This document shows, one piece after another, positions 1,377 through 58,400 of a DNA stretch of 64,000 nt. The stretch spans positions 10,337,655 through 10,401,654 of the forward strand of contig CAJINV010000004.1 in the NCBI GenBank assembly GCA_905178155.1, read 5' to 3'. Within the stretch, counting starts at the first letter, position 1, and every line of letters begins with the position of its first letter. The position numbers were made by a program, and so were the translations under genes. The notes under the pieces are model-generated. The model was given only the letters and a program-made list of their open reading frames with translations, searched no databases and was not told the DNA's origin. This DNA is from Amoebophrya sp. A120 (taxonomy: Eukaryota > Protista > Dinoflagellata).

Positions 1377-4300
1377 TTACGCGGAGTTACAACTATCAGC
1401 CGCACCCTCTCTGTCTCCATCCACTCGCACGCCGTCGCTCCCGAGGCAGACCGGCCGACCAGACGGGCTAATCGTCAGTGCTGTGGACGCCCGGAGCGGG
1501 TCCTCGTCTTCGGGGCTGAGCGACTGTTCGTCCGCAGCAGTTTTTATTGCGGTGTCGGCGCAGAAGGGTTTATTTTCGTGTGGAGTTGTTGTAATTCTTT
1601 GTTCGGACGAGGACCGCCCGTGAGAAGGGAGATCAAATTTATTTGCCACCTTCCCTCCTGGTCCCGGCGTCTGCTCGGCAACGTCTTCGTAACGGTAACG
1701 CCCCGAGTCGTAGTTGTTGTCCTCGAAGAAGAAATCGTCTTCGAACCCGTGCGCGGCACCTCCTGGCACGACGTAATTGTGCTTGGTCTGCAGCGAATTT
1801 TCCCCTCGAACCGGTACGAAGCCATGAGCGCCGTCCCGTATGTCGTGCAGGTCTCGGTCTTCCGCCACCACCCGGGGAGGCGTGCCCGCGACGTTCTGCG
1901 GGGGTAAAACGAGTTCCGGAATGCGGCTGTTACGGGGCTGGAATTTTTTGTCGTTGAGATGAGTTCGCGACGACAAAACGGGGGAGTAATCCACACTGTC
2001 CAAAGGGGAAAAGCTTTTCGCCACTGGAGGGTCTGTGCTCAGGCTGCGCTTGCCGGTGTGAAGAGAACTAGCACCGGATTGCGCGGCCGAGCGACGCAGA
2101 GAATCGGCGATCTGTATGTAGTTTTTGCGGAAGGGAGTTGACCTATTGAGTCGGATCTCGATCTGAATCTGATCATCTGTGACACAGTATGCATGACATA
2201 TATCGTTCGCTGCGTTGCCTTAACAACTTCAGCGAGTAACTCTACAAAGAAACACTGTACTGTGAGGTAAGACGGCAGCTTCATCGGCGAACGCATTGGA
2301 GAGACACTTTGCCGCAAATCTGTCGTGCTCGTTTTGCATAGCGAGTACCGCATCTGTAGGTTGCGCGGCGCGATCGACGAAGACACAACCTGCATTGAAA
2401 AAAAGGTGTTTGTAATTCTTGCAATTGCATGCAAGAAAGGTGAATGTGGATGTGCATCACAGCAATATACAGCTAAATCTTTCTGATAAGTACTGTGACT
2501 GCAGTGTCTGAGTCTGAGAAGAGTATCGTCCTGTACCGCATCCACACTGCCTGGCACAGCTCCGCCGGCAGCTACATTTCCCGTCCCGACCGCCGCCGGC
2601 TGCAAACGACTGCTCGCAGACAGCACACCCTTTTTCGACTTTGGTACGTAGTTGCTGTAGCTGTTTTGCACGGTCTTCGTCGGTCCGCGGGAGGTCTTAT
2701 TCTTGGTGTTGCGCGTCTTGTATAGCGGCGGTGACACGTCAAGCGTGAAATCAGGCTCTGCGCTGCCCTTGAGGTCTGCGTTGCTGCCGTTGGCCTGTCT
2801 TCGTTTTTGTGTTTCGAAAAATGTACACCGTATCAAATGCCTTGCGTTCTTTCGCTGGGGAATCTATCATCGGTCATGCAGTTGCAGGGGAAATAATCAA
2901 CATAAAACGGAAAGAGCACTCCCAAGTTCGTATACATCAGTTCCGAAGGCAAACGCCGGCAGAGGAGAGGATCGCGACGGCGTCAACATGCAAGGATCCT
3001 CGACGCTCGTGGTCGAAACTCCTGCATTCAGTGTCTGTAAAGAACCCAGAAAACTGCTGTCGCACATGGAGATGCAATCCTGCTCCGGAATAATGCTCGA
3101 AGGAACAACTCCAGATTGAGATTCTTGTCTCGCAGAGTCTCCAGCCGTGTCAGGCTTGTCTATTTTCCTCGCCTCATTTGATACAGAAATGACACTGGGT
3201 GACGCAACAAGCGTCAAAATCGTCGTGTCACTGGAGGAACAGGTAGTATGGCCTGCCGGACGCCTGTGCCGGTGCGCGTGCGACGACGTACGAGCAGTCT
3301 TTTGCTTCCTTTATGAGCTGCAAAAGTATCGTACTCGTATAAATGCATTACAAATTTCCTCAGCGTGACAAATAAAATTTGTAATGCTCATTTACCTTAA
3401 GAGAAAGATTTGTAAATGCATGATTGCACTACGAGTACGATACTTTTGCACAGGATATCCTTTGTGCGACGTTGATCTCCTGCTCCCGCTTCGCCTCTGC
3501 TTCGGACGCTTCCAGCCGCTTTGTCAGGAGAGGTACTAAATTCGGGGCGGGCGGCTCCTCGTCACCAGCACAGAATTGGACAGTAATAGTCGGGGGCTCC
3601 ACCAGCGGAGCGACTTTATTGTTTTCCTGGTCTTCCTTCCTTTCCAACTCCGCCGGCTCTACTTGTGCGCCTACAACAGGTCGAACCGCCGACGCCACCG
3701 GAACATCGTCACTCATCGTGCTTGTAGAAGAAGTAGCGTCAGTTATTTGCTTCATCGGTGCCGCGCTCTTCGCAGGAGTTGGCAAGCGGACCATCTCAAG
3801 AACACGCGGCGCCGGGCTCGCCGAATCTTCACAGGATGCTTGTTCGTCCAAGGTTGGCGTTGGAGCGCCGTTGCCCACCGCCACCTGCTGCACCATGCCT
3901 TCGAGACTGTCTTCTACCGGTGCTGTAGCGCGGCTGTCATTTACAATATCCACGTGTTGAAGATGAGCGCAGAACGCGGGTAGTTCTCCTGTTTGCTCTA
4001 GTCCTGCGTCCACGGAGAGTGGCAGAGATTCCTCGTTGCAGACGATCAGATCTGGGTCGAGGGTCGCGGTGATACCATCATCAAGCTCGAGCACTTCCAG
4101 TTCCTGCGTCACTTCCGCCAGCTCCACCACGCGCGTCGTCTCGACTGGTGCGGACTCCACTTCATCACCGTCAACAGCGGCTAGTGCGACGTTCTCGCCG
4201 TCCAGAACTCTGGATCGTCGCGTTGTGGGCGCTCCTTCTACTAGCAGTAACTCCTCAACATGATCAACATCTGTATCAACAACTTCCTGGACTGTCAAGA

Positions 4301-7300
4301 CAAACTCCTGCTCCGATAAAGCTCGGGATGTGTTACTACGATCCGTCTCGAGAAGTACCATCTCGTCGGCGGAGCAACTGGTGGGCGCATGACTAATCTC
4401 CTCGACATTAATGGCCCCCTCGTGCGCCTCCGTTAGTTTTGTGTCATTCGTGCTGCCTTGCAAGCAGTTGCAGAGAGACGAATCTTCGACGAGCGCACCG
4501 TCGACGGGCGGGCTGGTGCCTGGTTTGGGAATAAAAATTGGCGTCCGCTGTAAATGCAGAGAAAAGGCGGTCTACAGAGCTCTGTATACAATTTCATTTC
4601 TTGAAGATGATGCTGCATTCCTGCGCAACAACAGAAAAGCGACATGGATGCGACTGTGGAAGGTCGTCGGGTAAGTACTTACTAAACATGTGTCTCCGGT
4701 TGATTCAATTTTGGACCCCCATACATCAAGGTTCTATACATGTGTAAGCAGCGGCAACAGCTGAGGAAGTTCCGTTGCTTTTCTTGTTCTCCGTCACCAC
4801 TTCTATTTCGCCAGCCTCCCCGGCCGCGGCCACGGGAGACAAAGCCCGGTCCTCGTTGGTTTTATTTCCTTGAGCGACAGCTCCTCCCGTAGCAGGCGGC
4901 GTGCACGGAGTCATGTCTGCTTCGTCGTCGTGCAAGAGCACCAGATCCTCGTCCGACCGGTCTAGGCTACTGCTAGTCAACTCGACGGATTGTCGACGGA
5001 TCTGCTGGTGATGCGGTTCCTCCTCCCCCTCGTCCGCGCTAGAGGAGCTGCTGCAGGAAGACTGCGGCGTGGTATACAGCAGAGCATTGTTCACCGGCGA
5101 GGAGTTGGCCACCGTGCTGGGCGTCACACGGTGATGCGACTGCGGGTCGACGAGAAGATCGGTTTCTTCAGAGCAAACACCCTTGTTCGAAGCGGATTTC
5201 ATCTCGACCAAGTCGCGTTCCTGGGCTTTGTCGTCCTCCTCTTCGCGTGGACGAGATGGAAGAACAGCTGCTGGTGAGGTCACAGTAGTAGACGCTGGGG
5301 ATTTGGTATCTGCTGACGCATCAGCACGCACCTGGTGTCTTTCCACTGATCGCGCTAGCGTGAGGCTACTTTTCTCGCCACTGGCACTGTCTGCTGCCGG
5401 CGTGCGCTCTTCATTTGTTCTACTTCCATGGTCATGATGTGCAGCTGCACCACAGTTCATCTTGCCGGCTTCCTCAGAAAGAACTTTCCTCGAACATGGT
5501 GGAGCAGCTCCTGCGGCACCTGTTCTTGCATCATCGGCTCCACCTGAAGATACTACGTCATCGTCGGGGGATACAGGTTTGTTCTCCACTTCTTTCTCCT
5601 TCTTCTTTGTGTCTGCTTTTCTCGTTGTACTTCGACTTGTGGACGGTTCATCTGCATCTTCGACGTGTTCCCCGAGCGAGATCTCTTCTTCGTCCAGTTT
5701 CTTTTTCATCATCAGAGTCGCTTTGTAGTGCTTCCGGGCGCTGTGCAGAAACGAAAAATCCGACAGCGACCCACTCGCCCTTTTCAAATCCACGTCGAAA
5801 ATTTTGTCGGTCAAGCAGTACAATAAGCGGTCCCCGAGAATGTCGATTCTTTCGATGTGGTTGCGACTCAAGACGACCGGATCCCCGTTATCCTGAGTAA
5901 AAACATCCCCACACCAGAGTCAAGATGGGGATTTTGCAACACAAACCTAGAACTTTTGGGGGTCACGCATCACAAGTCGCAGTCCGTAGTGTAGTGCAGG
6001 TTCGCAAGGCCAGCTGCATCAGAAATCCATCTGCTTATCCTGTTTACAGCATTACAAATTCCAAAACACGACTAAAAATGCCTCTCCTGGCGATGCGCAT
6101 TACAAATGTTCCTGTCATTGCAAATCTGCATGACAACTCTGGTGTGGGGACGTTTTTACTCAGGATACCCGTCGTCGCTCGAAAAGTCGTCGTCATCGAC
6201 AAAATTTTGACCCCCGCCGACCTCGTCCTGATACTTGACCATCGAGCCGTTCGTGCCGGATTGGTTTGAGGAGACAAATGACCGGTGCGTGTTCAGCTTG
6301 TTACTTTCAATCGCAGTAGAACCACTGCTATTTCTTCCATTATCAAACCCCGCCGCGTCCAGGTCCTGTAGCGCAGCGGCGCTGGAGGCATCTTCGGAGG
6401 ACGATGCTGCTGCCTGCGACTGTCGCCGAATTCCTCCGCTGTTTCTTGGATGCACAATCTGCTGCTCGCCGTAGACTTCGTTGCGAATGTAGAGGTGCGA
6501 GCCCTCTTCGTAGTGGCAAGAAGAGTACATGCAATTACCCGCCGACGTGCTGGTTTTCACCTTGGTCCCGTGCAAGTAGGCGCTGCGCGAGGGGCTCGCG
6601 GCATGCGGCGTGGAGGACTGATGTTCCACCTGCGACGGAGTTTGCTGGTTTCTCGTGGTGTCCTCATCCCCTGCGGTTGGCGATGGTTGTGGTTCTCGTA
6701 GTTCTGCAGTAACAACACCTTCCACACGATTCTCTACCTCCGGCCGGCCCAAATTTTTTGGCACTGCATCTTTCGGCTGCGGCGTATCCGGAGCGACGAC
6801 CTCGGCGAGAACGATCTTTATTTCCTTTTCGGCCCCGTTCGGACAGGATTCGGCAGAAGCAAACGCAGCGTGGTTGTTCATGTTCTTCTCTCCTGCGCGA
6901 TTCGCCTTCGGCTCTGCCGCTTCTTGCTCGGGACTCAGCAGCTGGCCCTCGTCCGGGCTCCGCAGTTCCTCGGGAGACGGAGAAAGCCCGTGCTGCGGCA
7001 CGAGGGTCATCATCTCGCCCGTGGGGCCGCGAAGGTCCGGAGAGAGCGTGCAGTAGTGATCATTTTCGTCCGCCGGCGAAACGGGCGAACACTGCCGCGG
7101 CAGGTCATGCTGCTCGGCGGCAATGTCGTCGTGCGCAAGAACCGCGGGGTTTGGTGGAACGTGGATGTGCTGGTGATCCTGTTTGAGAGATGAGAGGACC
7201 TCGCTTTGTTCCGCTTCACAGGCCGAAGGAACTGCGGGGGGTCCAATGGCATGCTGCGCATCAGGACCTCGACCTGGCGCAGTAGTTTGATGAGGTTCAT

Positions 7301-10300
7301 TGTCATTGTCTTCATCCTTGCCATCGCCCGCAAGACAAACATCTTCGCAGCCATCAGCAGTTTCAACTTTCGCGGGCCGTGCAGCAAGATCCGTGGTCAG
7401 ATCGACTACATCAGCAGCAGCTGTATCAACGTCCACCCCTTCATCTTCAAAGGTCACACGGTCTGGCGACGGCGGGGTGATTTTGATTGTATCCCAGTTT
7501 TTCCCGCCTGTCATCCCACTTCCGACCACCTTGGGCGTGGGCAGCTGCCCCCGGTCGGTATCGCTGTTCGAGTTTTCGGATTCGTGCGACCCTTCCTCCA
7601 AAGTTTCCATTCTTTGGTAGCGACCGAGTCCCGGCGCGCGGAGCCCGAGATTCTTCAAGCCCCCGTAGTCGGACCGGAAGGGGAGGAAACTAGCGGTCGA
7701 ACAGCGGGTCCAATCTAGAATTTCGCCCGGGAGGTCTTCTGGAGCAGCAGCGTCCTCGTCTGTCGTTGCGCCACCAGGCTCGGAAACATTGCAAAGAGGC
7801 GCGTCGAGCTCGGGATGATGATTGTCGCTCTTGGACTCCTGCTCTGTCACGCACACAACGTCGCAGGGCGAAGGTGTGATCTCCATCTCGGCAATAAAGC
7901 TCCTTTCGTGTGGCAACAAAACCTGCTCTTTTGCTGGATCCGTTTCTGTTTGCGGCTCCTCTCCACCCCCGTGTCCGTTAACTACATAGTCCTCGTCGAT
8001 CATCACATCACTGGCAGTTTCAGCTTTCTCAACGTCATCGACGCACGGAAATGGAACAGAAGTGGACGGTAGGACTACCTCTTTGTCCGCATCATGAATG
8101 TCGACATCCGCGCTGCTACGGGGCTGACTGTGGGTGCTAAAGTGAAAATCAAGCTCAACCCCTCCTCCCGACAACACTTGGTCCTCCGCGTAGCGAGGGG
8201 TCCGGGAAGGATTCCTGCGCAGCATCTTTCCGGTCCGGGTTATGAAGATCTTTTGTCGCGACGGTTCTGCACCAGATGCCCTCTGCCCGTCTGTCGTGCC
8301 CGCTCCTTCTTCCTCCAGCAACGTGTCTATCTGGTGTTGGTCTTCGTTAATATTTGACGTGGACTCCCGGCTGTTTCTGTTGCTACTGCTCCGCTCAACG
8401 ACTCGAGCGGAACTGCCGGTGCTGGACGAGGTAGCAGCATGGCCATCGGAGGACTGGCCGACGCTCGGTCTGCTCGAGGCGGCACTGTAACCGGTACCCG
8501 AAGAATCTTCACTGGTATTTGTTGACCTTCGACGCACCATCTTGTTGGTTCCTGAGGACGACGATCCATTCGTCGCGGCCGAAAAAGGTCGTGCCTTTAA
8601 GTCTTCCGTTGTACTGGCCGTGGCAACTACATCGACGGATGATACAGTGGCATTCCCGGGTACCTCCATAGCGTTCACGGCAGGTCGGTCTTCGTCATGC
8701 GTCTTGCTTGCCCCGAAATTATCCAGTTTCGAAGCCACTGCGACAGAAGCCGCACCGCTCTGGCTTTTGCTTTTCCGGCCGCTCCTTTTCTTCGTCTTAG
8801 AACTACGAGAAGCGCGGTGGATTTTAGTGTCCACCTGGGTACTAGTCGTGCTGTTTTCCGCCAGAGCCCCCCTGTCCTGCGGCAAACACGGCAGCGTCGC
8901 AGCGCACTTGCTTCTCGACGATTTCGCCCTGCCGTCGCTGCTACTGGACGAGCTAGAGGAGCCACCTCCAGACGAGGACGACTGTGCAAATGGGCTCTCC
9001 AGGTCCCGCACGGATTCGGAGGTGACCGAGCGCTCACTACTCGCACAGGAAGAATTCGTGTCTGCATCGATGAGCTGCACAAAACCCGTGGTAGTGGAGG
9101 CACTTATGGGGTTCTCAAACGTTACATTCTCAACTGTTACATGAATTTGTCATGCAAAAACACCATCATCATCCTCACGATCAAGAAGCTGCTCCGCGTG
9201 ACAAGTTTGCGAAGGGCTAAGCCGCGCCTAAATCTGCGCCAAACTTGTAATGCAAAAGGCGCAATCTTCCTCCTTTCACTTTTGCCAGTCTTGCATTACA
9301 AATTCATGTAACAGTTGAGAATGTAACAATTGAGAGTCCCATAGCGCTGCTGCTTTCGTTCGAGCTCGTTCCGTCCTCCTCGCCAGACGAACGGCTTGCC
9401 GCGTAGGAATTTTGCGGCGGCGTGAAACAGCGCTGCTCGTGTAGTTGTTCCTCGTCATCTACATGTTCCTCGCAGGAGGAAGCAGACGGAGGGAAGCTAC
9501 GGGCAGCTGCTTCGACATTCCCAGCAGTGAATGCGCAGGAGGTGGTACTAGTACTACTTCCGGCCGAACGGTGGTGGTAGCTTTGTTCATCGTCTCTCTT
9601 GCTTTTTCGAGGAACACCCTCCGATGGTAGCAGGGGCTGGCGTCCTTCCTTGTTATCCTCATCGCGACTCCCCGAACCAGTCGCTTGTCCGCCAGCTGTA
9701 CTCGTCCTAGCACAGCCCGTGCTACTGCCTGCGCTGCAGCTGCTCGAAGATGAACTCGACGAAGCAGACGTTTTCCCCGAGAGGCCCACCTCGCACCCCT
9801 TGTAGTGGTGCCAGGAGGAGGAGACACTTCTTGTCAGAACTACATTCTGCTTGCTTTTCTTTCGCCCGGAAACAGAGCAAAAAGTGGTTATCGGCTCCAA
9901 ATGCAGCTCCTCCGCGGATTCCATGCGGTCGTTGAAGGTCGTAGAAGAAAGCCGAAGGGGTTGCGGGTGCTTTGGAGGACCCGCTCCACGTAGTTGTTCG
10001 TGGTGGTCTTTAGTCGTGCCGGCCTCTGAAGAAAAGGGGCCACAGCCTTGCGACCGGCGCAGGGAGGTGCTGGCGCAACCTTGTTCTTGCGCGTGCCCTT
10101 GTGGTCCTGCAAACAGTTCCTGCTGGGCGGCGCTCCGAATCGACGTAGTGCAAGAACTTCTAGACGCCTGCGATGTAGTATTTGAAGACCTGTGTCGTTG
10201 CAATAGTCTTTTCTCGTCGACGATATCCAGTGGCTCTAAATCTTTCCGCGCAATCAAGAACGATTCGGTCGAGCAGTGCCGTGGCAGATGCAGGGAGCGT

Positions 10301-13300
10301 TGCTGGCGCTGTACCGCTGGAGGAGCAAGTGCAACATCTCCAAGTCCGGCTGTTTTGTTTGCTTCGATGCTCTGCTGCAAGACAAGTGCTCCACGCGGTA
10401 TCAGTTTGGAGTGCCGCAGGTTCTCGTCCGCAGATGGCTCGTGCTTGTCGTGGCGCAGTTGAGAAGAACATGCTGCTGTTGCGGCCGCTGACGATTGCAC
10501 ATGTTGAGACGCTGTCGCTTCGGCAGGACAATGATCGGTCGAAAAACGAACGACAGAGCTGGGTCTCCCTGATATCCTCGGTTCGTCGACACAACTTGCG
10601 GGATCGCTACCAATCATTCCCGGCACAGCCACCTCTACTAGTGCCGCTCTTGTCGTGCTCACGCGTGGTTCGGTGCGGCGTGAAGTTGTAGACTGGTCCA
10701 ACAGCTGCAAGCAACTCTCGTCATTATTTCCCGTTGTACCATCGTCCAGTACCTCGTCAAAGTTCTGATCGCCCATCAGCGCATCGTATTCGGCAGCAGC
10801 GCCGGCAATGTCTGCCTCTGCGTAGCGGAAGTTATTGGAGCCGCAGCGGAGTAGTGGGAACCGAATCTCGTCGTGGCCGGGCAGGTTGGTCTCATCGACA
10901 TCAAGGATATCGTCCTGCTCCTCTTCTATGTGATTGTCGTGCGCCGCAGCAAGAACGCCTGCGGCAGCAGTGCCCCCAGAAGTCTCATCGTTCGTCGGTG
11001 CTGACGTCAGTCGCGGTTCTTTCACCTGTCCTTCGATTTGTTCGTGGTCTACCAGTGCGACCTGTTGGTTCTTTTTCGGCGTGCTGCTATCGGGACCACG
11101 GAGGTCGTTGGCAGCAACTTCGTCCTCGATGAAATCCACGTTTTCCAAAGCCAGCGAGTGCTTATCAACTGTAAAAGTGTCTGGGTCTGGAAACTTGTGA
11201 TGCTGGTTGGCGTATCATGAGGCGGCCACAAGTGCTGGCTCAGCATGACAAGTTTCTGAGCTTCGAGGTGTTGCCTATTCTGCATGACAAACTGCGTTTC
11301 TGCATGAATGAAAAACGGGGCTCTTGCGTAACGTGCATGACAGACTTTGGGGTCATGCTGGCAGAGCATGACAGACCTTCCATTCTTCCAGACCTAGACA
11401 TTTTTACAATCCATAGTGCTCCAAATCATGCAAAAACTCCTCTGTCGCGGTGAGATTCACGTTGGTGATTGTGTCCATCTCGGAACAAGGTAGAACTTGT
11501 GGCACGTGGACAGCTCCTTCTGCGGTATTTTTGCTTCTGCAGCTGCTCTGCTGTTGTACGAGCGATTCTACTTGTTTGCGAGGGGGCGTCGAGTATTCAT
11601 GTTGCTGCACGTCGATAGGTGTACTAGCTCCGGGAACAACAAGAGAATTTCTCTCGGCAGGCTCCCTCAGCCCTTCGACGTGCGAATGTCCATTCCTGCT
11701 GCCCCTGTGCGACTTCGTCTTCCCTCCCGCACTAGACGCTGATGACTCGGCGGAAATCCGGCTAAGCTCCGTTTCCAGCAGAGCGATGCTGCTGTGCTCC
11801 TTATCAAATGCAAAAGTGTCTGGGTCTGCAAGGTTGGAACCTGTGATGCTATTTTCGGACTCTAAAAAAATCTGTATTGCATGACCAGCAAGAGGAGTCT
11901 AGTTTGTGCTACGCGGGGAGGGCGTTTGTCATGCGAAGTAGGCATCAGGAAGCCGTCTAAAAATCTGTGATGTTAGGCCGTGCATTACAGACAACCTGGG
12001 TCATGCAAAACATGCATGAAAAATTTCAGAATCTTCCAGACCCAGACACTTTCGCATTTGATACTCCTGTGCGTCGTGCACTTTCAACGCAAAGCTGGCG
12101 TCTTCCTGCCACAGCTCGCTCGACGGACGGAGAAACTTCGCCAAACTCGCCACGGACGCGCTGTGCAGCGGCCGCTCCGTGCTGTTGACGCTCGACCCAC
12201 AGAGGGTCGGCGATTGCTCAGGATCGCTGTTGTACGCCTGTTGCGGTGACGCAAGCATGATGTTTTTACCCGTGAAGGAGGTCGAGACGGTCGCTGGGAG
12301 GGTGACACGCTCCTTCTTCAGCTCAGGGGCGGGAACCAGGCATCTGCGGAGGATTTCGTTTTTTTATTCTTTTCATGCTGATTTTCATTTTTTTTTTTCG
12401 TGGACGTGGAATAAAGATTTTTTCGTTCGATTGTGTTTTTCGATCATGTCGACCAAAAGAATTCATGTGAGTCGTAAAGACGACCCAAATTAATACAGCA
12501 AACTATCGTCCTTTTCATTGCGAAAAGTCTCGATCATATCGCGATCCAAAACGGCGCCGGGGGCTCTTCTGGGCGCCGGCGGTAGTAGCTGCCCATCAAG
12601 TAGCTCTGCTTCCGAAACCGGACCACTTTCTCCGCAACGGCGCGATTTTGGTGCCACAATTATCGGAGTCCTCATCGCGCTCCTTCTCGCTTTAATTCTC
12701 GTCCCGTGCTTGGGCACCCCGCATGCATCGCTTCCGTGGTCCTCTTCCTCTCCGGTGTTGTACTTATCCAGCATGGCCTCCATGTACTTGACAAACATGG
12801 ATGCCTGGTTCGCCAGCTGAGAGTCAATCTTCAACAGCATTTCCCTCACCCCATCGTCTTCGATCGACGTTGTACTGGCGGAGGCTCCTGCACAACTCGC
12901 ACTGCTGCTCGAGGAGGTGGAAGCGCAGCTGCTACGGTTCGCTGTACAACTGAAGGTGCTCTTTCTGTTCGACGTGAGAAACTGGGACTGCGATGTAGTT
13001 GTTGACTGATTGTTCTTAGAAGTAGTACTGATGTATCCCGATGTTGAAGACCCTGCTCGCGAGAAGAGGGCACTACTCCGCTGCCCTTGTCCGTCGTGTT
13101 CAAAATCTTCACTTCGATCGTCCGGCGACAGGTTATCCAAACAACTACGGTTGTAGGCCAACATCGTGTGATGCTTGTTCGGCACCCTCGCATCGGTGGG
13201 ATCAGCGGCCAGCACCCTGGCAGCTCTTTGTCGAAGATTTTTGCGCACTGACATCCGCGTGGGACTGAGAGCGGGGTCGTCCCCATCATGGCAGGTGGTG

Positions 13301-13743: not shown

Positions 13744-14560
13744 CGTCGTGCTTAGTGAAGACCAGACGCAGGCGAAAGACGAAAGGAATTCAGGAAGATG
13801 ACCAGGTTCCTGACAAAGACGATGTCGAAACAAGCACGACAAGTGCCACCAGACAGGAAGATGAAAGCTGCAACGGCAGACCGAAGGAAGACGACACTCT
13901 ATCACCACTAGGAAGTTGCTGGTGAAAGCCAGCAGCTCTGCCGAAGTAAATTTCAATCAACACCGACTTTAATAAATACTGACTTGCACAGTTTGCGCCC
14001 GGTTTGGAGTCGCTCGTTCCCTAAAATGAGAATGTCAGCATTGTGTGTTGATTCAGTGCACCGAAGTGGATGTTGATCCCTGGGTTGAAGACAGAAATTC
14101 TCCTTTGTCTCTCATCCAGACGAAATTGGTTCGGCATTAATCCATTGTCAGGTAAAGATGTTGTGTGTACTTTTGAGTAGAGATGATTCATTGTCTCCAG
14201 TTAAATTCAAGCTCTATCTCTAGAAGCAGAACACGCGCACCCATGACTCTTCCTTCTATCTACTGCAAAACTGACATTCCAGTAATCCGGGAGAGCAGCC
14301 GGAAAACCTGCGGGCACTAGTGCGGACTACTACGGTAGCTCGGTTGCCCAAATTACAAAATGTCTTCTTGGAAACTGCGAAACCGAAACCACTCTGTCTA
14401 GTACCGTCGTTCCTCTACCTAGTACTTAATCAAACAGAACGAAACTGTGTGATCCATTGAAACGTTAGACACTTGAACAGAGAAACAAACTTCGGATGCG
14501 ATTGAGTTTGAGAACTGATGGATTACATAATCCTTGTTCTCAACACTCTTTACAGCTTCA

Positions 14561-21190: not shown

Positions 21191-21455
21191 CCCTGCCACA
21201 CACAGGCACAACACCAGCAACGACATGTGACAGGCCATGGGAGGTGATCTCTCCATGGAAGCCTTTTGTCAGGCGAAAGTTTCATTCGCTGGACAATCAA
21301 TCTTCATCTTGGACTTCATTATCATACATACAAAGCAAGCTACTTGTCTGTACATACATTCAACAAACCTTCTAGTTGATACATATTATTTTTATACGCA
21401 TATTTTTACAGTACGTCTTTATCTGTGGTCAGGCGCTTGGGGCGCTCTAGCTTTC
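21191..21455. repeat. ~250-bp diverged direct repeat, copy 1 (copy 2 ~22441-22650)
   Basis: ccctgcca..cacaggc.caacacca.caacgaca.gtgacaggcca...ccatggaa.ccttttgtcaggc shared. Confidence 0.75.
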
Positions 21456-21480
21456 GCTTTAGGGGTAGCTGTAATGGCGC

Positions 21481-46400: not shown

Positions 46401-49400
46401 GGTNNNNNNNNNNNNNNNNNNNNNNNNNNNNNNNNNNNNNNNNNNNNNNNNNNNNNNNNNNNNNNNNNNNNNNNNNNNNNNNNNNNNNNNNNNNNNNNNN
46501 NNNNNNNNNNNNNNNNNNNNNNNNNNNNNNNNNNNNNNNNNNNNNNNNNNNNNNNNNNNNNNNNNNNNNNNNNNNNNNNNNNNNNNNNNNNNNNNNNNNN
46601 NNNNNNNNNNNNNNNNNNNNNNNNNNNNNNNNNNNNNNNNNNNNNNNNNNNNNNNNNNNNNNNNNNNNNNNNNNNNNNNNNNNNNNNNNNNNNNNNNNNN
46701 NNNNNNNNNNNNNNNNNNNNNNNNNNNNNNNNNNNNNNNNNNNNNNNNNNNNNNNNNNNNNNNNNNNNNNNNNNNNNNNNNNNNNNNNNNNNNNNNNNNN
46801 NNNNNNNNNNNNNNNNNNNNNNNNNNNNNNNNNNNNNNNNNNNNNNNNNNNNNNNNNNNNNNNNNNNNNNNNNNNNNNNNNNNNNNNNNNNNNNNNNNNN
46901 NNNNNNNNNNNNNNNNNNNNNNNNNNNNNNNNNNNNNNNNNNNNNNNNNNNNNNNNNNNNNNNNNNNNNNNNNNNNNNNNNNNNNNNNNNNNNNNNNNNN
47001 NNNNNNNNNNNNNNNNNNNNNNNNNNNNNNNNNNNNNNNNNNNNNNNNNNNNNNNNNNNNNNNNNNNNNNNNNNNNNNNNNNNNNNNNNNNNACCGCATC
47101 GGGCCACGCCACTGGTATCGCGGTCGCCCCTGCCGGCGATTTCCGACAGGGCCGCGGCGCTTTCGGGCACGCCTTTGCCCGGCGCTTTCGACAGCCGGGC
47201 CGGGGCGGGGAAACGGGCTGGGCGCTTGCTGGTTTGCCCCTGGCGCTTTGGGTGGTTCTGCTGGTGAATGTGGCGGCGTTGCTCTACATTATTCGGGTTG
47301 CGCGAGCGATTCAGGTGGCAAACTGTAAGGGCTCCGCGCTGCGACAGGACAAGAAATGGGGGCCGGCAACGTTTTCGGAACAATGCGACTCATTGTAAAC
47401 GCGCACCACCTTCGAACCCTGTGGAGCTGTTTTCTCATAGACGCGCGTCTTTGAATCGGAGCAAGACTGTTAAGCAAGTGCTGGGATCGCTTCGGCTCGT
47501 ACATGCGCAGGCGTGAGAACCCAAAACGACACACATGCCAGCGGCAGCGCATGGCGGGGCGGGCTCCGCAGGGGGGAAATGCGAAATGGTTGGGGCCCAC
47601 ACAAATCAACTATATGTCCCGGGAGCCCCGGACAGGGGGGTGCTCGATTTTTGATGAACTTCTGCGATTTTCCTTGTCTAACAAGATCAGTGACCAATTT
47701 ATCAACGAGCAACGAGTTTCGGTCGCGAAGGAACAAAATAGACCATCGAGTATTTAATACCATGCATGCCACCAGCGACGGCACCCGGACGGTCGTTGCC
47801 GTCGACACCCCAAGGAACGCCGCTTCCGGAAACAGATCACAGCCCCCCTGCGTGCTGCTCGGGTTGCCGCAGGCGTTCGTCTTCGGGTCGGTGCACGGGC
47901 CTTGGCACTGCAGAGACAAGGACTCCGGTTCCTTGCCCGGTTCCGCGCCGCACTTTTCCACCGTCGCACTGTCGGCTTCGTCCCCGGTGGTGCACAGGTC
48001 GACCGTGCCCCGCCGAACCATCACGGCTTCCTCCGTTGGGGTGAGCGGTCGCTCGTCGTTCCGCAACGCCTTCGTCAGCCGGTAGGTTTGTTTCTGGTAG
48101 CAAGCGGACTGGATGTCCGGGGTCGGGATGTTTTCCAATTTCTCCGCGGAAAAGAAACTGCATGTCATCTCCGCGGCGTTCAACGTAATCAAATTCCAGC
48201 CCCCCACCCGCCAATTCGACGCTTTCATAGACTGCAGTTGCGTCCACACTTGCCGGTCCGAATCCGAAACGGAGACGGTGATGGGGAGATCTGGGAGTTC
48301 CGACGGAGACCCGAGCGGAAACACGGTTTCGTTCATCAAATTTGCCTTTGCCTTCGCCATATGGATTGCAAAAGTGTCTGGGTCTGGAAGAGTCGTGCTG
48401 TTTTTGCATGACGCAGAAGGTCTGGCGTGGAAGCTCTAGCACCACAGGTTTCGAGAAGCTTCCGCAATGCCGAATCCGCATCACAAATCCCCCATTTTGG
48501 TTACAGAAAGTGCGCACTGCAACTTGAACTTTTGCTGCCTATGCATGAGAGATTTTTCTGTGTTCTGAAATGCGCATCACAAGTTTGTATTCTTCCAGAC
48601 CCAGACATGTTTGCAATCCATACGCCATGTCGTCCTCCCGCGCGTTCCCGTTTTTGTCCACCTTCGCCGGGCGGCACCAGGTCGGCCTCTGGAACATCTG
48701 GATTTGCGTCGTGTTCGGCGGCGCGGGGAACTCAATGAAGAGGTCCGGCACGATCGTGGTGTCCTCGTCATCGTTGTCACCGTTATCCGTTGTCACATCT
48801 GGCGAAATCAAGCACTTCGTCTTTTCCGATCCGTCGTTGCAATTTTCCGGATTTTCGATGCTTGACCCGGTAATTTCTACTGGTACAATGTTCGTTAAAA
48901 CCTTCTCGGGCCCTTCCGTGACTAGTGTCACGTCCCCGATTTCCCAGCAGTCGGTCAAGTTGTTCTGCGTCACGTACCTGCGTTGCGACAAGGACATGCC
49001 CACTCTGATCCGCATTTGGTCCCGTGGCGTGGCCACGGAGGTGAACCCGCTGCACTTCTCCCCCATACTATCGCAGAGCTTCTGACACTCCGCAACCGTG
49101 CCGCGGATGTCCGCCATGTCCATGATGACCGGCGGTTGGTCGGGCACCACTTCGATCATTTCCCGCTCTTCGAACGTGGCTTCCGCTTCGTATCAAAAGG
49201 GAAAATCCCCCCTCCTCATATCAAAACGAAACTTCTGATGCCAGATTGGCGTACACAAATTAGCTTTGTATTGCAGGCAGGCACTGTGGCCAGATCGTCC
49301 CCAGGCTGGGTAGGGGCCTATGGGTCTAGTTGTTCAGCATTGCAAACGGCTCCCCTTTGGGCCCAACAGCATGACAAATCGCTTCCCCAATGGGGCGGAA

Positions 49401-52400
49401 GCTGCTGCCCTTGTCTTCTTGCAAGACAAATGTGATTTGTGGCCTCAAATCAGCAACACAAATTTGCGGAAGCATACCTTTTCAATATGGGGAGGGGGGA
49501 TTTTCCTTCCGATACTTCGGACTCGTTCTTCAGCATCTTCCACTGCGGCGCGCACCTCGCGCGCTCGATCCGCTTGTACACGCCGAGGTCCCCGCGGGAA
49601 GTCTTTTCCGCGATGGTCATCAGCTCGTCGGGCGGTCTGTCCGGATCCGTTTCCTTCACGATCTGCTTGCAGCCTCCCACCGGGTACAGCCGGCACATCG
49701 CGGGCGAGACGAACTCCATCCGCCGGCACAGAGTTTGGATCTGACACAGCGTCGCACACTGGGTCGGGGTGGTGTATCGGCCGTCGTAGAACTGATACGC
49801 CTCCGACCGGTCGGCGCACCTGGTTTTCGCCTCCGAACTCAAGGGCACCATCAACACCTCCTTTGCGCCCGCCTTCGGGCACTGTGGGTTCGCGAGCGCG
49901 GGCGGGAAGGTCTGTTGGTGGATGCCGCCGGCCGGCGTCACTTCCACCTCGTCGTCTTCGTCGGGAGCCGGAGTTATTGTACTATTATCGACAGTACTAC
50001 TGTTCGACGACGCGTCGGGCGTCTGAAACTGCTGGGCTCTTCTCGCCGCGCCGAAAAGCAGCTCGTTTCCGGTATTTGCAATCGTTCTACTTGACAGACG
50101 CTTCGACGCCTCTCGCAAACTGTCCCGCATCAGGTTCTTCAAATGGGCCCTCTCACTGTCAACGGTCATTTGGAGCAGGGCCAGGCGCGTCTTTTTCTGA
50201 GGCTGTTGCCCTGCTCCTGGCCTCCTGTGAAACTCCACGACCTCCTCCCGCCGTTCGCCTATCTGCAACGTGATGATGTCGTCTTTGTCTAGCCGCTCGC
50301 TGTCCATTTCCGGTGCGGTGAGCTTCGTCCCGTCGATGGGCGAGAGTGCGCGTGGCGTCGGGAGCCAGAGGAAATCGGAACCCGGACGCAGAAACTTCCC
50401 CCCGTCCGCAAACCCGGCTTATCCTGAGTAAAAACGTACCCACACCATAGTCAAGATGGGGAATCGGCTAGACAAATCCACAAGTTTTGGCTGTTTCGCA
50501 TGACAAATTTGGACGCGTAGTGTAGTGCTGTTTGAGATAGTTCAGTAGCATTACAGATCTAGTCTCTCATGCTGCTTGTAGCATGACAAATTTCAAAACA
50601 CCATTAGAAAATGCTTCTCATGGGGCTCCGCATGAGAAACATTTTAAGCATGCAGATTTGCATGACAACTATGGTGTGGGTACGTTTTTACTCAGGATAC
50701 GGCTTGCCGGCACATCATGTCTGCGGCGTTGTCGTCCGCTTCGTTCCCACAGACACTGCCCCAAAACGCGCGGCTCAGATCGCCCGAGCGCCGCTGGAAC
50801 CGGGCGATTTGCGCCTCCCCGATACTGCTGTCTTGGAACGCCCCCGCGCCCGCGTTGTTTTGGCCGTGCGCGTTGGCCGACGCGTCCGGGAGGAAGTTGG
50901 TCGTGCTCGCGAGCCGCACCGACATCGAGTGCTCCGTGCGGCACTCCATGCGAAGGGTTTCGACCTCTTCGCGGAGCTCCTTCCGTTTGTTCACGGGGAA
51001 AAGCTGGAACCCGTTGATGCACCTAACGCAGTGCACCGCGCCGTGTTCTGGGCACTTCTCCCCCGTCGCGGCGAAGCCTGTCATGGTGGTACTCCCGGTG
51101 CTGGGGTCACTGTAGCTCGGGCAGGCGCACTGCTTCGGCGTGCAGGTTTTGGACACCAGGTTGTAGAAAAAGCCTGTTTCGCACGTCGTCGAGTTCGTTG
51201 TCACGTTGCTCGTCATCACCGGCGCCGCGCACCGCTCTTCAAACTCGGGCAAGTTAGAGCAGAGCGTGCCGACGGCGGGCTTGCCGAATTCGCACGTGCA
51301 CAAGCCCTCGACCTTGCAGGTTTTGGCGTTTGGCCCCAAGCCCTTCTCCCACGCAGAGGGGCCGGCAAAGGGACCGATGGAGGCAAAAAGCCGACACTGC
51401 TTCGCGGTCGCCTCGTAATCAAAAGCGACGCAAGAATCCGCGGCCGCGTCACAGGCAGCGGCGCAGGCAACGCCGTTTTGCTGTAATGTTGAATGATTGG
51501 AGTATAAATTGCATGATGTCGGTAATACTTCACAAACACAAACACGTGTGAAGCTTGATGACGTATCGAAAAACAAAAATTGTACAGAAAGGAAAACTAC
51601 AACAGAAGGAAAACTAAAATCCCCTACTACTTACCTCTGTCGACGTGGCCCCCGGTGCTGTAAACGCGGGTCCGCAGTCCTCCGTTGCGCACCGGTCGGC
51701 CACCATCGTTCCGACTTCGCACTCGTACGCTCGCGCGCTGCTGTCGTCCTTCTGCAAACCACCCGGATCGCCCAAAATCTGCACGTCCGAGAGCATGGCG
51801 TCCCCCTTTCCGTTGTTCACGACCGAGACTTTCAAGCCCCGCAGGTTGTTGCAGCTGATCACATCGACCACCTCCGGACTGGTCGCGCTAGCTGGTGAGA
51901 TCGCGTTTGAGATTTCTTCACTTGCTCGCGTCTTGCACTCTTGCTCGTCGACTTCGACGGAAAAATCGCCCGTGTCAGACAGTTCCGCTGCCGTGAACCG
52001 CACCTGCACACTCGCTACCCGCACCGGCTTCGGAAACGTCATACCCCACTTGCCGCCGACGGGTAACTGCACCTGCGTCGCCCGGTCGTCGTCCACCGCG
52101 GACGGCTTGCCCGCGGGGATGTCGGCGCCCGAGACCGATTCGACGCCGGGGGTCAAGCGGTAGCCGTCGATTAAGGGTGCGCGCTTCACCGCACGGTACA
52201 ATCCGTAGGACATCGGCTGGTCGTCGGTTAAAACAGCATCCGGCTCATACGCCGGCTCCACGGTTCTCGACACCAACTCACACGTCCCTTGCTCGAACGG
52301 CTTTTTGCTCCTCGGGTCGCGGGAAATCAAAAAGTAATCGCACCACCGATTGTTCAAGGCGCAGTGGGCCGCACAGGCCTTCGACGCCTCGTACCCGCTC

Positions 52401-55400
52401 GTGTCGCTGATCGCCGCGCGGACCAGATTTTGAAACCGGCTCTCGTCCCCGAGGCGAAACACGTACTTTCCCGCGGTCAGTGCCAAGTCACCACTAGCGG
52501 ACTTCTCCTTCATCACTAAAGGCAGCCCGCAGTGCACCTTCCTCCCCGCCCAGGGGCCATCCGCGCGGCGGCAAGTGCCGGCGACGCCGCCGTGGCAGAA
52601 GAGGTCCGTGCAGTCTGCGTCGGACACGGCGGCCGCGTACTCAATGCTCCCATCTGGGCACAGACACATGCCGCCGTTGCGATTCGGCGTCGCGGCCTGC
52701 TCCGCGACGTTTCCGCCGTTCAATATCGCGATCCTGTCGTCCAGCTTGAGCAGCCCGGTGTATCAAATGCAAAAATGTCTGGGTCTGGAAGAATGCAACT
52801 TGTCATGCTGAATCTGAAGCTTGCAAAAATTTGTATTGCATGATTTCCAAAAGATGTCCACTTTTGACCAGTTTGACAGGGAGTTTCTCATGCAGGATAG
52901 GCATGATGGACACCTCACAGCGATTATCATGCTAGGTGCTGCATTCCAGGCCCCGTGGGTCATGGAAAAACTGCATCACAAATCTTGCATTCTTCCAGAC
53001 CAAGTCCAAGACATTGTTGCATTTGATACGGTGTCGGCATTCACCACGTTCTCCTCCAATTTGACTTCGTAAACGGACACCCGCCGCCCCGGCACCCCCG
53101 CCGGCGTGCCGCAGGGGAATCTGGGGTCCTCGCCCTTCGCCGTGCAGGGGCCGCACTGGGAATCCGGCTTTCGCAAGCTGTCCATCGAGTCCGGCAGGTA
53201 AAACAAGCTGCAGAAACAGTCACTCGCCCCAACGGCGAAGTAATGGGTCGGCGCCGGTCCGACATCCGCACCGGTCGCGTTCGCGGTCAGATTCTTTGCT
53301 TCCCGATCGGCGTTTTCCGCGGTGATCAACGTCTGCTTCGCGGCAATCAAACACCACTCCCGGCACTCCGCGACACTCGCACTCTCCCCCACCGGGTAGC
53401 TGGTCGCGCGCGTCCAGGGGGTCGTTTCCGGGTTGGCGAGCAAGTCCGAGTCGAAGCAGCCCATGTGCTTCTGCGCGGGTTCGATACCCAAAGTCCCTCC
53501 TGCTTTCGTGGTGACGATATCCGCCTTCATGCAGAGCACAAAGTCGTCGAATCTCGTTGAGGTCGCGTAGGAACTGGCTTGCAAAATGCAGTGTCTTTTG
53601 TTCACGCTGTACTCGAAGGACTCGCAATCTTTGTCCCGCTTTTCACATTCCGCGGTGCACTCCTCGATGCCGACGTTCTGGATCGTGTTTGCGTCGTTCG
53701 TGACCAAGTCGATGTGCTGGAAGAACCCGAGCTTCCGTCTGTACCCGGTGGGGCAAATCAAGTCCGCCGTCCGGGAAAATCTCGGGACGAGGGCGGGGAA
53801 TTCGGGTGTGCTCCCCGCAAGTTTCGCGGCCCCCTCCCGCCAAAGTGGCATGGGCGCGCTCAGCAACGCTTTCTCGAAAAGATCCTTGATCGGCACGGAC
53901 TCCGGGGTCAAGCTCTGCGGCGTCGAAATCCGCAAAAACGCTGCGATCCCGCCCGGATCAGATAAAGTCGCGGGCACTGCGCGCACGGTCGCTGCGGAGT
54001 AGAAATCGCAATTCCCGCCGATCTTGTTGTACACAAAACCACCGCACGTCGGTATTAAAAGGAAAAGTCCCCCCTCCCCATATCAAAACGAAACTTCTGA
54101 CGCTGGATTTGAGTGCACAAATCAGCTTTGTACTGCAGGAAAGCATTGCAGTCAGGCCCCCAGGCTAGGTAGGGGCGCACGCGTCTAGTTGTTCAGCATG
54201 GCAAGCGGCTCCCCTTTAGGCCCAACAGCATGACAAATCGCCTCCATAATGGGGCGGAAGCTTCTGCCCTTGCCTTCTTGCAAGACAAATGTGATTTGTG
54301 ACCTCAAATCAGCAACACAAATTTTCGGAAACATGCCTTTTCAATATGGGGAGGGGGGATTTTTCCTCTCGATAGTCGGCACCGCGTCGTCGCACAGACT
54401 GCGACACATCGTGGAGGAGAGTCGCACCGTTATCATTTGTAAAAACGTCCCCACCCCATAGTTGTCACGCAATTCTGCATGCCAAAAAAGTTTCTCATGC
54501 GGAGCCCGATGAGAAGCATTTGCTGTTCGTGTTTTGGAATTTGTGATGCTGGAATCAGCATGCTATGCTAGATCTGTGATGCTTCTGAACCTAGCAAAAA
54601 AGGATTACACTACGAGGACAAACTTGTCATGCCAAACAACCAAAGCTGGTTGATTTGCCTAGCAGATTTCCCCTCTTGACTCTGGTGTGGGGACGTTTTT
54701 ACTCAGGATAACCGTTTCCGTCGTGTCGTCCGTTGCCGTGCTGTTCACCATGTTCCCGCTCTCCCCGATCCGGACCAGTTGCCGCTCCGTGACGATCGCG
54801 AAATCGGGGAGGATTTTGCCCTCCAGCACCATGCCACTCGCAACCCGAACGTACCCGTCTGTGTAGAGTGCGGTGGGGAGCAACGACCGGTAATGCGCAT
54901 ACGTGCCCGGGGTCGTTTTCGACGGAGCTAACGTCGCGGTCAAAATGCACCCCTCGGTCAACGACGAAGGGTCGACGAGCACCCCCGCGCACCAGTTCGT
55001 CGCCAAGCACTGCTCGGAGCAAGTGTCCGCTGTGAAGTTCCCGGGAACCGTTTGCTTCACAGACGGTTGGTCGGCGGTGCCGGTCAAGTCCGCCCCGTCC
55101 GTCCACAGTTCTTCGGTCAAAACCCGGTTAAAGCTCGTGCTGTACACGGCAATCCGATCGGTCGCGCCGCAGTACTCGGCGTCCAGGTTGCACCCTTCGA
55201 TATCGTACAGCCCTTTGCTGCACTCGACATCGTCCACTTTGGTGAGTTCCGCGGTGGCATTTTTGTCGCCGCACCTGCAGGAAACCGCGTCGCCACCGTA
55301 GAGCCCGAAGAAGGGAAAGGAGCCGCACATGCCGGAGCAGGTTTCCTGGGTCAGTTTGGAAACCAGCACCATCGCCGGGAAATTCGCGGCTTGCACCGTT

Positions 55401-58400
55401 TTATGGACTGCAAAAGTATCGTGCTCGTATAAATGCATTACAAATTTCCTCAGCATGAGAAATAAAATTTGTAATGCTGATTTACCTTAACAAAGGGATT
55501 TGTAATGCATGATATCCATGCGAGTACGATACTTTTGCACAGGATACGTTTGAAAGGAGGACTTCGCGGGTTTGCTGTAGTCCGGATTTTTCTCCGACTG
55601 GGTGGTCGTCGGGCCTATGCATTGCAAAAGTATCGTACTAGTGGAAATAGCATTACAAATTTTTCCAGAAGCAAAAATGGAATTTCTAATGCTGAATTCG
55701 CTAGGAACCCAGTAGATCTGTCATGCATGACTGCAATCCATACGAGTACGATACTTTTGCACAGGATAGGGCCCATCGCGTAGCAACCCAGCAGTTCTGC
55801 TTGCTTTTTCACCGCGGTGACGACAGGGGCTTGGTCTGACTGTGATTTGCTGGCTTGTTCCTCGTCTGCGAATTCACTCTCCAGCAATGCCGAATCCGTT
55901 GTTGTATCCGGTCGGGTACCACTAGCACTGCCACTTTCACCTTCCTCCTCCGATCCAAACCAAGACTTTCGCGAACTTTCAAACAGCGTCACAGCAGGCG
56001 GGGCATAATTGGCAGTAGCACCACCACCAGCAGGCTCTTCTTGTCCTTCCAGTGGCGTGGAGTCGGACAAGGCGAAGACAAAAACTCGGACCGGCTCAAA
56101 GACCGCGCCAGAGGAGGACTCTTTCCCCGACGCGACGGAAGACAACCCGACCCCGCTACTCGACTCGGGGAACGAACAGGCTTTCGGATATGGCGTTCTC
56201 AAATGTTACATTCTCAACTGTTACATGGATTTGTAATGCAAGAACAGCAACAGTGAAAGTGGCAACGTTGCAACTTTCGCATCACAGATTTTCCACAGAG
56301 TATCATGGTGTTTAGCCCTTCGAAAATTTGTCATGCTAAGCACCTTGATCAAGTGCAGGGCAATTATGTCAATTTTGCATGACAAATCCATGTAACAGTT
56401 GAGAATGTAACGTTTGAGAATCCCATATCGGATCGATACCACTTTGAAACCGTCCCAGCCTCACCTGCTGGTACTGCTTGGTGTCCGTCACAAATTCGCC
56501 GTTGAAAAAGTGCACGCCTTTGTCCTCATCCGTGGTGCACAGAACTTCCCCCTTCTCCGCATTTTTGCTCGCGGTCGGGAAACTTTTCCCGCCGCTGTGC
56601 AGCCAGTTCACCGCAGTCGGCACGACGGACTTCTTCACATTTTCGATGCAAGCCGCACTGTCCACGAAGTAGTCGCCGACGTCGCAAGGATCGGCCGTTT
56701 GCCTGTCCGTTTGCTTAGACGTGGCACTTCTACTACTTTTCTGGGCAAAAATCGCCTGTTGCTGTGCGGCTTTCTGTTTCGCGGCTAGCGTTTGGTCGTT
56801 GTTTTTCAAGCTGATCTCCCGGCCACTAGACGTGTCGGTCAGCAAATCCCGCAGGGACTTCCCTTGATCCTCGCTACGGAGGAACAACAGCGGGCCAAGC
56901 TTCCCGTTCTGCTCGACCTGCAGTGCCTTGATCGCAAAGTTGTATCCTGGATGGATTTTCGATCTTTTTCCAATCGTTTTCGGGCCGTACTCGTCCCACG
57001 CAGCACCGGCGTAGCGGAAGTCCTTTTCGTCATCCAAGATCTCCAGCGCCAGGTGCGGCCCTTGCGGCTGCACGAAGACCTGCACGGGGTGAAACCGGCT
57101 ATCGAACTGCTTCTTGTCCGCCTGGAAATCCGCCACCCCGGATGCGATCGACTGCAAGCCCACGCCCTCGCCGGACCGCGGCATCAAAGAGAGTTTATCA
57201 TTAGATTGACCAGTAGAAGAGGATGTTGTAGGTAGGTTCTGCAAAGCTGTACCGGTAGCTTGCTGCGTCTGGGAGTAGACTGTGTTGCCAAGGACGGTGG
57301 TAGGGATTTGGAAGTGATTCATCTTCGAAGTAGTCCCCTTTATTTCCTCCTGTTCCAACAGCGATACCACCGTCTGTGTCTGTTTCGTCGGCAGAAGACC
57401 TGCTTGTTGCGCTAGATCCCCTAGTTCGCTTCTCCATAACCCGATCCGCATTTTATTTTCCGTTGTGTACCCGTTGAAAACCAATCTGTCCAGGGGCGGC
57501 GCGTGCCTAACATCCGGGGTTTGCGCGAAGGCGTAAGGTGCGCCGGTCATTTGGTCCACTTGGATAGTAGAGTACACGTTGAACACGTCTGCGGTCGGGA
57601 CCGAAAGTTTTCCGGCAGACACCTCCCCGGCCATGAACCCGTATCAACTGCAACAGTGTCTGGGTCTGGAAGATTGCGAGACTTCTCATGCTAGTCTAGT
57701 ATGACTCTGCACTCTGTATTGCGTGGCCACCAAGAGGTCCTCTTGCCTATCATGCAAAAGCGCAGTTTCTCATGCGAAATACGCAGCACAGAAACACGAA
57801 AAAACTTGTCGTGCTTGGCGGCGCATTACAGAGCACTTTATTGCTCACGGACTTGCATCACAAGTTTTCAGACCCAGACATATTTGCACTCCATAACCCG
57901 TTTGTTTTCACCACGTTCCCGTTCAAAGCCACGTTTCCTAGGGGTGCTTGCACTAACTCGGACAGCGATTTGGAGGCGACAGACCGCGCCCCGCCCGGGG
58001 AGGTCGGTTTTTGCTTCTGGTCCTTCTTCAAATCGAAACTGACGGTGTTTGCGTTCATTGAGAGAATCACCGTAGACGCGGGCTTGAAATAAGCGTCTGT
58101 GACGAATATGACTTGCAAAAATGTCTGGGTCTGGAAGATTGATAAAACTTGTCATGCTAAAACCAAATCATGCAAAAATCTGTGCTGCATGACTGCCAAA
58201 AGCTGTCCTCTTTCGATCAAGTTGGGTGAGAGTTTCTCATGCAGGAGAGGCATGACAGAGACCTCACAGACTCTGTCATGCTAGGTCCTGCATTCCAAAC
58301 CTCATGGGGCATGGAGAATATGCATGAGCAGTTTGCATTCTTCCAGACCCAGACAGATTTGCATTTGATAACGAAGTTGCCACTGCCAAAGTCCGTCGCC

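Follow-up and report, generated by a model that had tools for sequence, protein, structure and literature searches.

Biologists have long asked how introns multiply. Introners of the Amoebophrya type are the most extreme case known, in that most of these introns lack GT-AG boundaries. The question is raised by a 64,000-nucleotide stretch of the Amoebophrya sp. A120 genome (contig CAJINV010000004.1, positions 10,337,655 to 10,401,654 of the forward strand; here, "the window"), in which small inverted-repeat elements of several families are found from position 3312 to position 58370. Did one kind of enzyme put all of them there, and what becomes of them in RNA? The elements make up at least six families of miniature inverted-repeat transposable elements (MITEs) with TAT tips and 5-bp target site duplications (TSDs); they are cut out of transcripts along with one TSD copy and are likely mobilized in trans by a single kind of DDE transposase. 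We put the probability of this reading at roughly 65%.

One tip and one duplication length across families

The window has a G+C content of 54%, and its long open reading frames (ORFs) are nearly confined to the minus strand. We delimited 31 full-length MITEs and one probable one, with a total length of ~9.5 kb (15% of the window), located in exons and between genes and in either orientation. They comprise families A to F as defined in an earlier analysis of the window from its letters alone (the sequence-only reading), one fam08-like copy, and a 1333-bp element (25165..26497) whose TAC tips are the single departure from the TAT tips of all the others. Sizes range from 145 to 324 bp, apart from two longer elements (~1 kb and ~1.3 kb). 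None has coding capacity, and the terminal inverted repeats (TIRs) differ beyond the tip from family to family. The sequence-only reading had quoted seven termini, all of which are present where it had placed them, and had proposed that the families share a terminal code (TAY...AAAA) and a 5-bp TSD. Counted on both strands of the window, the pattern TAYNNNNNRNAAAA has 59 occurrences, whereas 5.55 ± 2.33 were expected, and none of 100 shuffles reached 59. The pentamers flanking the 31 elements were identical in 23 cases, matched at four of five positions in 6, and matched at three of five in 2.

The wider sample consisted of 138 loci from metagenome contigs (618 kb; ~680 kb with the window), retrieved by means of the family A repeat core. 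These loci are eukaryotic, with genes for RPB1, SNF2, and DNA ligase, and an RPB1 fragment from one of them showed 86% identity to a EukProt protein and 60 to 67% identity to apicomplexan and dinoflagellate proteins. This places the host among the alveolates, and the features of its elements suggest a syndinian like Amoebophrya. No match to the family A core was found in viral contigs. Every family of the window is represented in the loci. When TIR pairs of up to 400 bp were defined by motif in the window and the loci, 176 of 216 were flanked by an exact 5-bp TSD and a further 26 by pentamers matching at four of five positions, while a control pair of pentamers taken 4 to 8 bases farther out matched in only 1 of the 216.

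We also scanned the window and the 618 kb without recourse to the motif, using repeat islands from an all-against-all BLAST comparison and allowing any inverted 3-nt tip and TSDs of 5 to 10 bp. TAT tips with an exact 5-bp TSD were called in 261 of 472 islands, other combinations were called in 29, and 182 gave no call. The 29 other calls, which gave the appearance of 6-, 7-, and 8-bp TSD classes, proved to be shifted registers or internal palindromes (GTGCAC and TTGCAA) of known families; after their inspection, no second TSD class, including a 6-bp class, was left among the 472 islands. The single mobilizing mechanism that the sequence-only reading had proposed for all families is thus borne out by a scan in which TAT tips combined with a TSD of 5 bp were the sole class to emerge.

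The 261 elements fell into 20 clusters, 13 of which had at least three copies, and all start with TAT(C/G/T). In the 680 kb, these elements were 109 to 325 bp long, and the largest family had 112 copies. The A run of the proposed code, at repeat positions 11 to 14, was found in only about 8 of the 13 multicopy families and was absent from fam06 (family C), fam08, fam09, and fam12. The shared code therefore holds for the tip and not for the AAAA portion, and the invariant terminal part is TAT(C/G/T) plus the 5-bp TSD. Inside the tip, the repeats are specific to families, which form clans with TGCAAAA..., AAAAA..CCCCC..., and CTCAAACGTTACA... repeats. The target sequence carried at most 0.06 bit of information at each of 25 positions and showed a mild richness in G+C. 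At one paralogous empty site, the pentamer was present once, and the alignment was gapless after removal of the element plus 5 nt. With their TIRs, a TSD of fixed length (5 bp), small size, multiple copies, and no transposase ORF, these elements are MITEs, and every recognizable family in the sample shares one integration chemistry. With one tip and one TSD length in every such family, a search need consider only one type of enzyme, and its key is the combination of a TAT tip, inverted repeats specific to the family, and a TSD of 5 bp.

At the ends of family A elements (window and loci), repeat positions 4, 5, and 7 were much more variable (0.9 to 1.7 bits) than positions 8 to 30 (0.1 to 0.9 bits), and the two ends of one element were often unlike at these three positions; for this reason, the last 7 nt do not pair when family D RNA is folded. 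The idea that repeat positions 4 to 7 represent a captured older TSD was discarded, since they bore no relation to the flanks and their entropy was just moderately raised. Longer family A elements (481 to 993 bp) contained unrelated inserts with no sequence common among them and thus gave no hint of a parent element.

Removal of the elements from mRNA

Deletion in silico of an element together with one TSD copy fused long minus-strand reading frames (992 and 387 amino acids at 5889, 622 and 982 at 9105, and 308 and 323 at 50420). At 9 of 29 window junctions tested, at least 100 amino acids were open on both sides after removal. Among the 261 junctions of the wider sample, an offset of +5 opened 63; the numbers were similar at +2 (65 junctions) and +8 (62 junctions), whereas out-of-frame offsets opened 19 to 31.

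Transcript evidence was in agreement. The X3 and X4 contigs skip exactly the element plus 5 nt at 17 elements (9 plus 8). Skips were read directly at 3312, 5889, 9105, 11163, 16065, 16358, 17666, 18735, and 18961 and also at 48360, 49191, and 50420; those at 54053, 54431, 55402, 55616, and 56189 were derived by arithmetic from the record pieces. Ordinary GT..AG introns (4518 to 4739, 16881 to 17073, 18049 to 18225, and 51481-51634) are skipped in these contigs as well, and on this ground we take X3 and X4, which like X6 are presumed RNA runs, to be spliced complementary DNA. From the raw RNA runs X9 and X10, 0 and 2 reads, respectively, aligned. X1 contigs, of even depth near 45, continue from exons into elements. 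We conclude that the elements are almost certainly introner MITEs that are removed from mRNA; the sequence-only reading overlooked their intron nature. They have the features of A120-type introners, namely, a TAT start in 13 of 13 multicopy families, the A run in about 8 of these, a direct repeat of 5 nt, and noncanonical boundaries at the 17 elements that the RNA contigs skip. Since the TSD can be of any sequence, most of these introns have no register in which GT-AG boundaries are possible.

The four elements with unequal pentamers at which skips could be placed (9105, 16065, 16358, and 17666) allowed the two TSD copies to be told apart, and in all four the transcript-upstream copy was kept. 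The excised piece is thus the element plus the 5 nt that follow it, give or take one or two shared bases. With four cases, a fixed excision register of this kind is suggestive only; an offset that stays fixed even where the duplication has decayed would hint at the mechanism of RNA cutting. Orientation as an intron was unbiased (14 same versus 12 opposite for fam01 and 7 versus 4 for fam02). The inverted repeats were paired in the RNA folds, whose z-scores ranged from -5.6 to -10.2. In the transcript, the inverted repeats are predicted to pair into a long stem that would hold the two exon ends close to each other.

The four GT-AG introns (4519-4739, 16882-17073, 18050-18224, and 51481-51634) begin with GTATAG, GTATTG, GTATTT, and GTAAGT, respectively, so that three of the four have TAT at intron positions 2 to 4, as in the element tips. 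In a separate observation, even the gene for RPB1, the largest subunit of RNA polymerase II, is broken up into several open frames in locus L053, with a 972-bp element of family A occupying locus positions 7016-7987.

Formally, the shared tip and A run could stem from selection on the removal of copies from RNA and not from a common enzyme: several unrelated transposases would supply elements, and only copies with a UAU start and a U-rich 3' arm would be tolerated in genes. The resemblance of TAT to positions 2 to 4 of the local 5' splice site fits this idea, as do the splicing of elements in both orientations and the fact that, in either orientation, the A run of one arm becomes a U run near the 3' end of the intron. 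However, splicing does not determine TSD length, which is set by transposition and is 5 bp throughout the 13 multicopy families; the four families that lack the A run have the same tip and TSD; and a copy located between transcript contigs (52761-53028) keeps the same tips. We regard selection for RNA removal as an improbable source of the shared ends.

Relation to published introners

The element type is that of the published introner elements of Amoebophrya sp. A120, whose terminal motif is already in print. Farhat et al. (2021; PMC7789003) described introner elements in strains A25 and A120 as noncanonical introns with inverted repeats of 8 to 20 nt and direct repeats of 3 to 5 nt. In A120, the inverted repeats open with TAT, followed by 7 variable bases and then at least three As, and in A25 they begin with TTA. 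The window elements resemble the A120 introners in having TAT/~7 variable/A-run inverted repeats at the intron ends, direct repeats across the exon/intron borders, noncanonical splice sites, and a predicted RNA hairpin, and we also count as likenesses the average intron length of about 240 nt and the unidirectional gene clusters (PMC7789003). Two differences stand out. There, direct repeats are 3 to 5 nt long at variable positions, whereas here the repeat is uniformly 5 bp and abuts the TAT tip; and inverted-repeat motifs specific to families were not found there, whereas the repeats here are clearly family specific inside the tip.

Introner MITEs of Symbiodinium, Polarella, Micromonas, and Aureococcus are likewise nonautonomous TIR elements that have TSDs and create introns and whose splicing keeps mRNA length (PMC9860276). 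In these other algal and dinoflagellate introners, either the element brings its own GT/GC/GA-AG splice sites or sites in the TSD are co-opted (PMC9860276); in contrast, the arbitrary TSDs of the elements described here leave most of the introns without a possible GT-AG pair in any register. Gozashti et al. (2025; PMC12130899) classed most A120 families as "TIR DNA, Unknown," with automated TSD calls of 2 to 6. The descriptive core of our finding is already published, and the additions are modest: a strict 5-bp TSD abutting the tip across families in 680 kb, no target preference, no orientation bias, and a hint of a fixed excision register.

Candidates for the mobilizing enzyme

Tip and TSD length together would place the enzyme in the neighborhood of IS3EU/GingerRoot or of Ginger, among transposases of the integrase-type DDE class, because TA..TA tips are found in IS3EU/GingerRoot and 5-bp TSDs are found in Ginger2 and with many integrases. 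Such a transposase would recognize the TAT tip plus an inner repeat block, cut its target with a 5-bp stagger, and integrate without preference for target sequence. The sequence-only reading had suggested an IS3EU-like or undescribed DDE transposase and had named TA termini and 6-bp TSDs as features of IS3EU, and PMC10045372 agrees on these features; for IS3EU/GingerRoot, TA..TA termini and usually 6-bp TSDs are described (PMC10045372 and PMC6839031). Besides their termini, these elements share with ours the absence of a nucleotide-specific target apart from GC-rich sites. Ginger2/TDD and long terminal repeat (LTR) element integrases fit in TSD length (4 to 5 bp for Ginger2; 3 to 6 bp, mostly 5, for LTR elements) but have TG..CA termini, in contrast to TA..TA here (PMC10045372 and PMC6839031). 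In the table of PMC12130899, A120 fam38 is filed as "Ginger; 5-bp TSD, TA/TA termini," while the main text of that paper describes the fam38 element as lacking the termini and TSDs expected of Ginger.

That one transposase type moves all of the families is, on balance, probable. Its being integrase-like, as its termini and TSD length would suggest, is a tentative proposal, and membership in classical IS3EU is less likely than that, because the 6-bp TSD of that group is not what we found. We consider it rather unlikely that a fuller scheme applies, in which a single integrase-type DDE transposase related to IS3EU/GingerRoot would act on essentially all of the families with a 5-bp stagger and the same terminal code would direct GT-AG-independent excision measured from the base of the hairpin, from the first base of the element to 5 nt past its last, irrespective of the sequence of those 5 nt.

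Several observations weigh against mobilization of all families by one such transposase. The 236 ORF queries from the window yielded no Pfam domain of a transposase or integrase, as the sequence-only reading had anticipated in stating that no transposase is encoded there, and the 268 ORFs of at least 190 amino acids from the loci yielded none either. Nor was a coding element of more than 1.4 kb whose ends match found in the 680 kb. The sample of loci, having been fetched with the family A motif, is biased to genic regions that carry family A. The 182 islands without an exact TSD call were inspected only in part, those sampled being merged or misbounded copies. The TSD of IS3EU/GingerRoot is 6 bp (range, 6 to 8) compared with 5 bp here, and GingerRoot inverted repeats are 100 to 150 bp long compared with about 25 to 50 bp here (PMC10045372 and PMC6839031). 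PMC12130899 lists A120 fam65 (4 copies) as Mutator, with 8- to 9-bp TSDs, so that a genome of this kind may include TIR families outside the code. Finally, Farhat et al. (PMC7789003) detected no transposase in A120 and spoke against a general transposase-mediated mobilization. One candidate for a longer element, a 3.5-kb segment with perfect 30-nt ends (L070:6074-9622), was set aside, as it has no ORF above 256 amino acids and is probably two separate small elements.

Because A120 by their account lacks transposase genes, Farhat et al. suggested a spread that needs no transposase of its own, in which an RNA hairpin intermediate or host repair enzymes, for example, would play the part. The absence of a transposase from 504 ORF queries is what such a route would predict, as is the report of Farhat et al.; the sample searched was, however, small and genic. 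Moreover, a fixed 5-bp duplication of arbitrary sequence abutting conserved inverted tips is the signature of DNA integration at a staggered cut, and copies also occur outside transcribed exons. Spread by hairpin or repair therefore seems to us a poor prospect next to a transposase that acts on the tips.

The enzyme might also come from another superfamily in which TSDs are, at least sometimes, 5 bp long, such as Transib, a short-TSD hAT, or a relative of PIF/Harbinger. The 5-bp TSD itself speaks for this, and it is the TSD length of Transib; the tips of Transib (CAC...) and of hAT (YARNG), on the other hand, do not match TAT(C/G). For hAT, PMC4482050 gives TSDs of 5 to 8 bp, and for A120 fam19, PMC12130899 gives terminal matches like those of PIF-Harbinger, with a TSD of 5 bp on manual inspection recorded in its table. 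NuwaI has CWG TSDs and GGG tips, and the PHIS groups have TSDs of 0 to 4 bp. With no target preference and with TAT tips, the elements of the window conform to neither the CWG target nor the GGG tips, and NuwaI/PHIS was rejected as a source. An origin in one of these superfamilies is accordingly doubtful, and an integrase-type enzyme is the direction in which the ends point.

Elements of the window

Family A (fam01) is represented at 11163..11415 (253 bp; TSD GTGCT, exact), where the transcript skip runs from 11156 to 11415, and at 11802..12063 (262 bp; CTCCT, exact), for which no RNA joint is listed. The copy at 17666..17928 (263 bp) has a TSD matching at three of five positions (GGAGG/GAAGC) and is skipped from 17660 to 17929 with the right copy kept; that at 18961..19212 (252 bp; TTGCC, exact) has its left tip mutated to CAT and is skipped from 18955 to 19213. 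The family library matched the copies at 39117..39378 (262 bp; GTCCG, exact), 41771..42031 (261 bp; CAGCC, exact), 44165..44428 (264 bp; GAAGT/GAAAT, 4/5), 57642..57895 (254 bp; ACCCG, exact), and 58107..58370 (264 bp; ACGAA, exact). The copy at 48360..48622 (263 bp; CGCCA, exact) is skipped in an X3 contig (record 9), and that at 52761..53028 (268 bp; CGGTG, exact) is the one lying between two transcript contigs. At 42310..43302 (993 bp; CCCCC/TCCCC, 4/5), family A ends flank an unrelated insert of ~715 bp.

Family B (fam04) has copies at 5889..6167 (279 bp; CCCGT, exact; library match; skip from 5883 to 6168), at 50420..50699 (280 bp; CGGCT, exact), which is skipped in X3 record 9 and has an RNA fold z-score of -10.2, and at 54431..54710 (280 bp; ACCGT, exact; X3 record 10). 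Family C (fam06) is found at 9105..9343 (239 bp; GCACT/GCGCT, 4/5), skipped from 9099 to 9344 with the right copy kept, and at 56189..56427 (239 bp; TCGGA, exact; X3 record 10). Its copy at 28145..28383 repeats that at 9105-9343 as part of a segmental duplication of ~1.45 kb (8078-9533 and 27071-28573); the flanks of the element are identical in both duplicates, which makes the insertion older than the duplication.

Family D (fam02) elements are located at 3312..3457 (146 bp; TCCTT/TCCTT; library match; skip from 3306 to 3458), 18735..18889 (155 bp; CTCCG, exact; skip from 18728 to 18889), 55402..55546 (145 bp; CGTTT, exact; X3 record 10; RNA fold z-score, -7.7), and 55616..55768 (153 bp; GGGCC, exact; X3 record 10 and X4 record 15). 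A probable D-like MITE at 37804..38091 (288 bp; CCATC/TCATT, 3/5) was not matched by the family library. Family E comprises a fam11 copy at 39428..39738 (311 bp; ACAGG, exact; library match), a fam05 copy at 49191..49514 (324 bp; CTTCG, exact; skipped in X3 record 9), and a copy at 54053..54374 (322 bp; GTCGG, exact), whose removal fits the lengths in X3 record 10. Family F (fam03) was matched by the library at 38450..38665 (216 bp; TCCTC, exact), 43903..44111 (209 bp; TCTGT, exact), and 44469..44677 (209 bp; CCCCT/TCCCT, 4/5), and an F-like MITE at 16065..16322 (258 bp; GAGTG/GGATG, 3/5) is skipped from 16059 to 16323 with the right copy kept. The fam08-like MITE (TAT..GTGCACAAC) occupies 16358..16632 (275 bp; CTTGC/CCTGC, 4/5; skip from 16352 to 16633). 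The 1333-bp element with TAC tips has 44-nt TIRs, an exact TSD (ACCGA), and ORFs without a Pfam domain, and no copy of it was found in the 138 related loci.

Other features of the window

Among the window ORFs, the only Pfam domains were PAN and pentapeptide, and scans for Rfam families and tRNAs in the window gave no match. Two perfect inverted copies of 589 nt (45815-46403 and 47093-47681) surround 689 N (46404-47092) in an A+T-rich stretch (40% G+C); the arrangement is probably an artifact of assembly or masking and not biological. At 30015-30488 lies a lone 474-bp inverted-repeat structure with 63-nt arms (92% complementary), AAC..GTT tips, and flanks that match at four of five positions (ATTAG/GTTAG); no further copy is present in the window, and the structure may represent another kind of TIR element, likewise with a 5-bp duplication. 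Finally, a cluster of ~140-bp repeat units at 63592-63999, each with a 40-nt palindrome (CATAAGTTCCCTA...TAGGGAACTTATG) beside a TTTTTCGAAAATGCAAAAAC block, stands outside the TAT families and runs past the end of the window.

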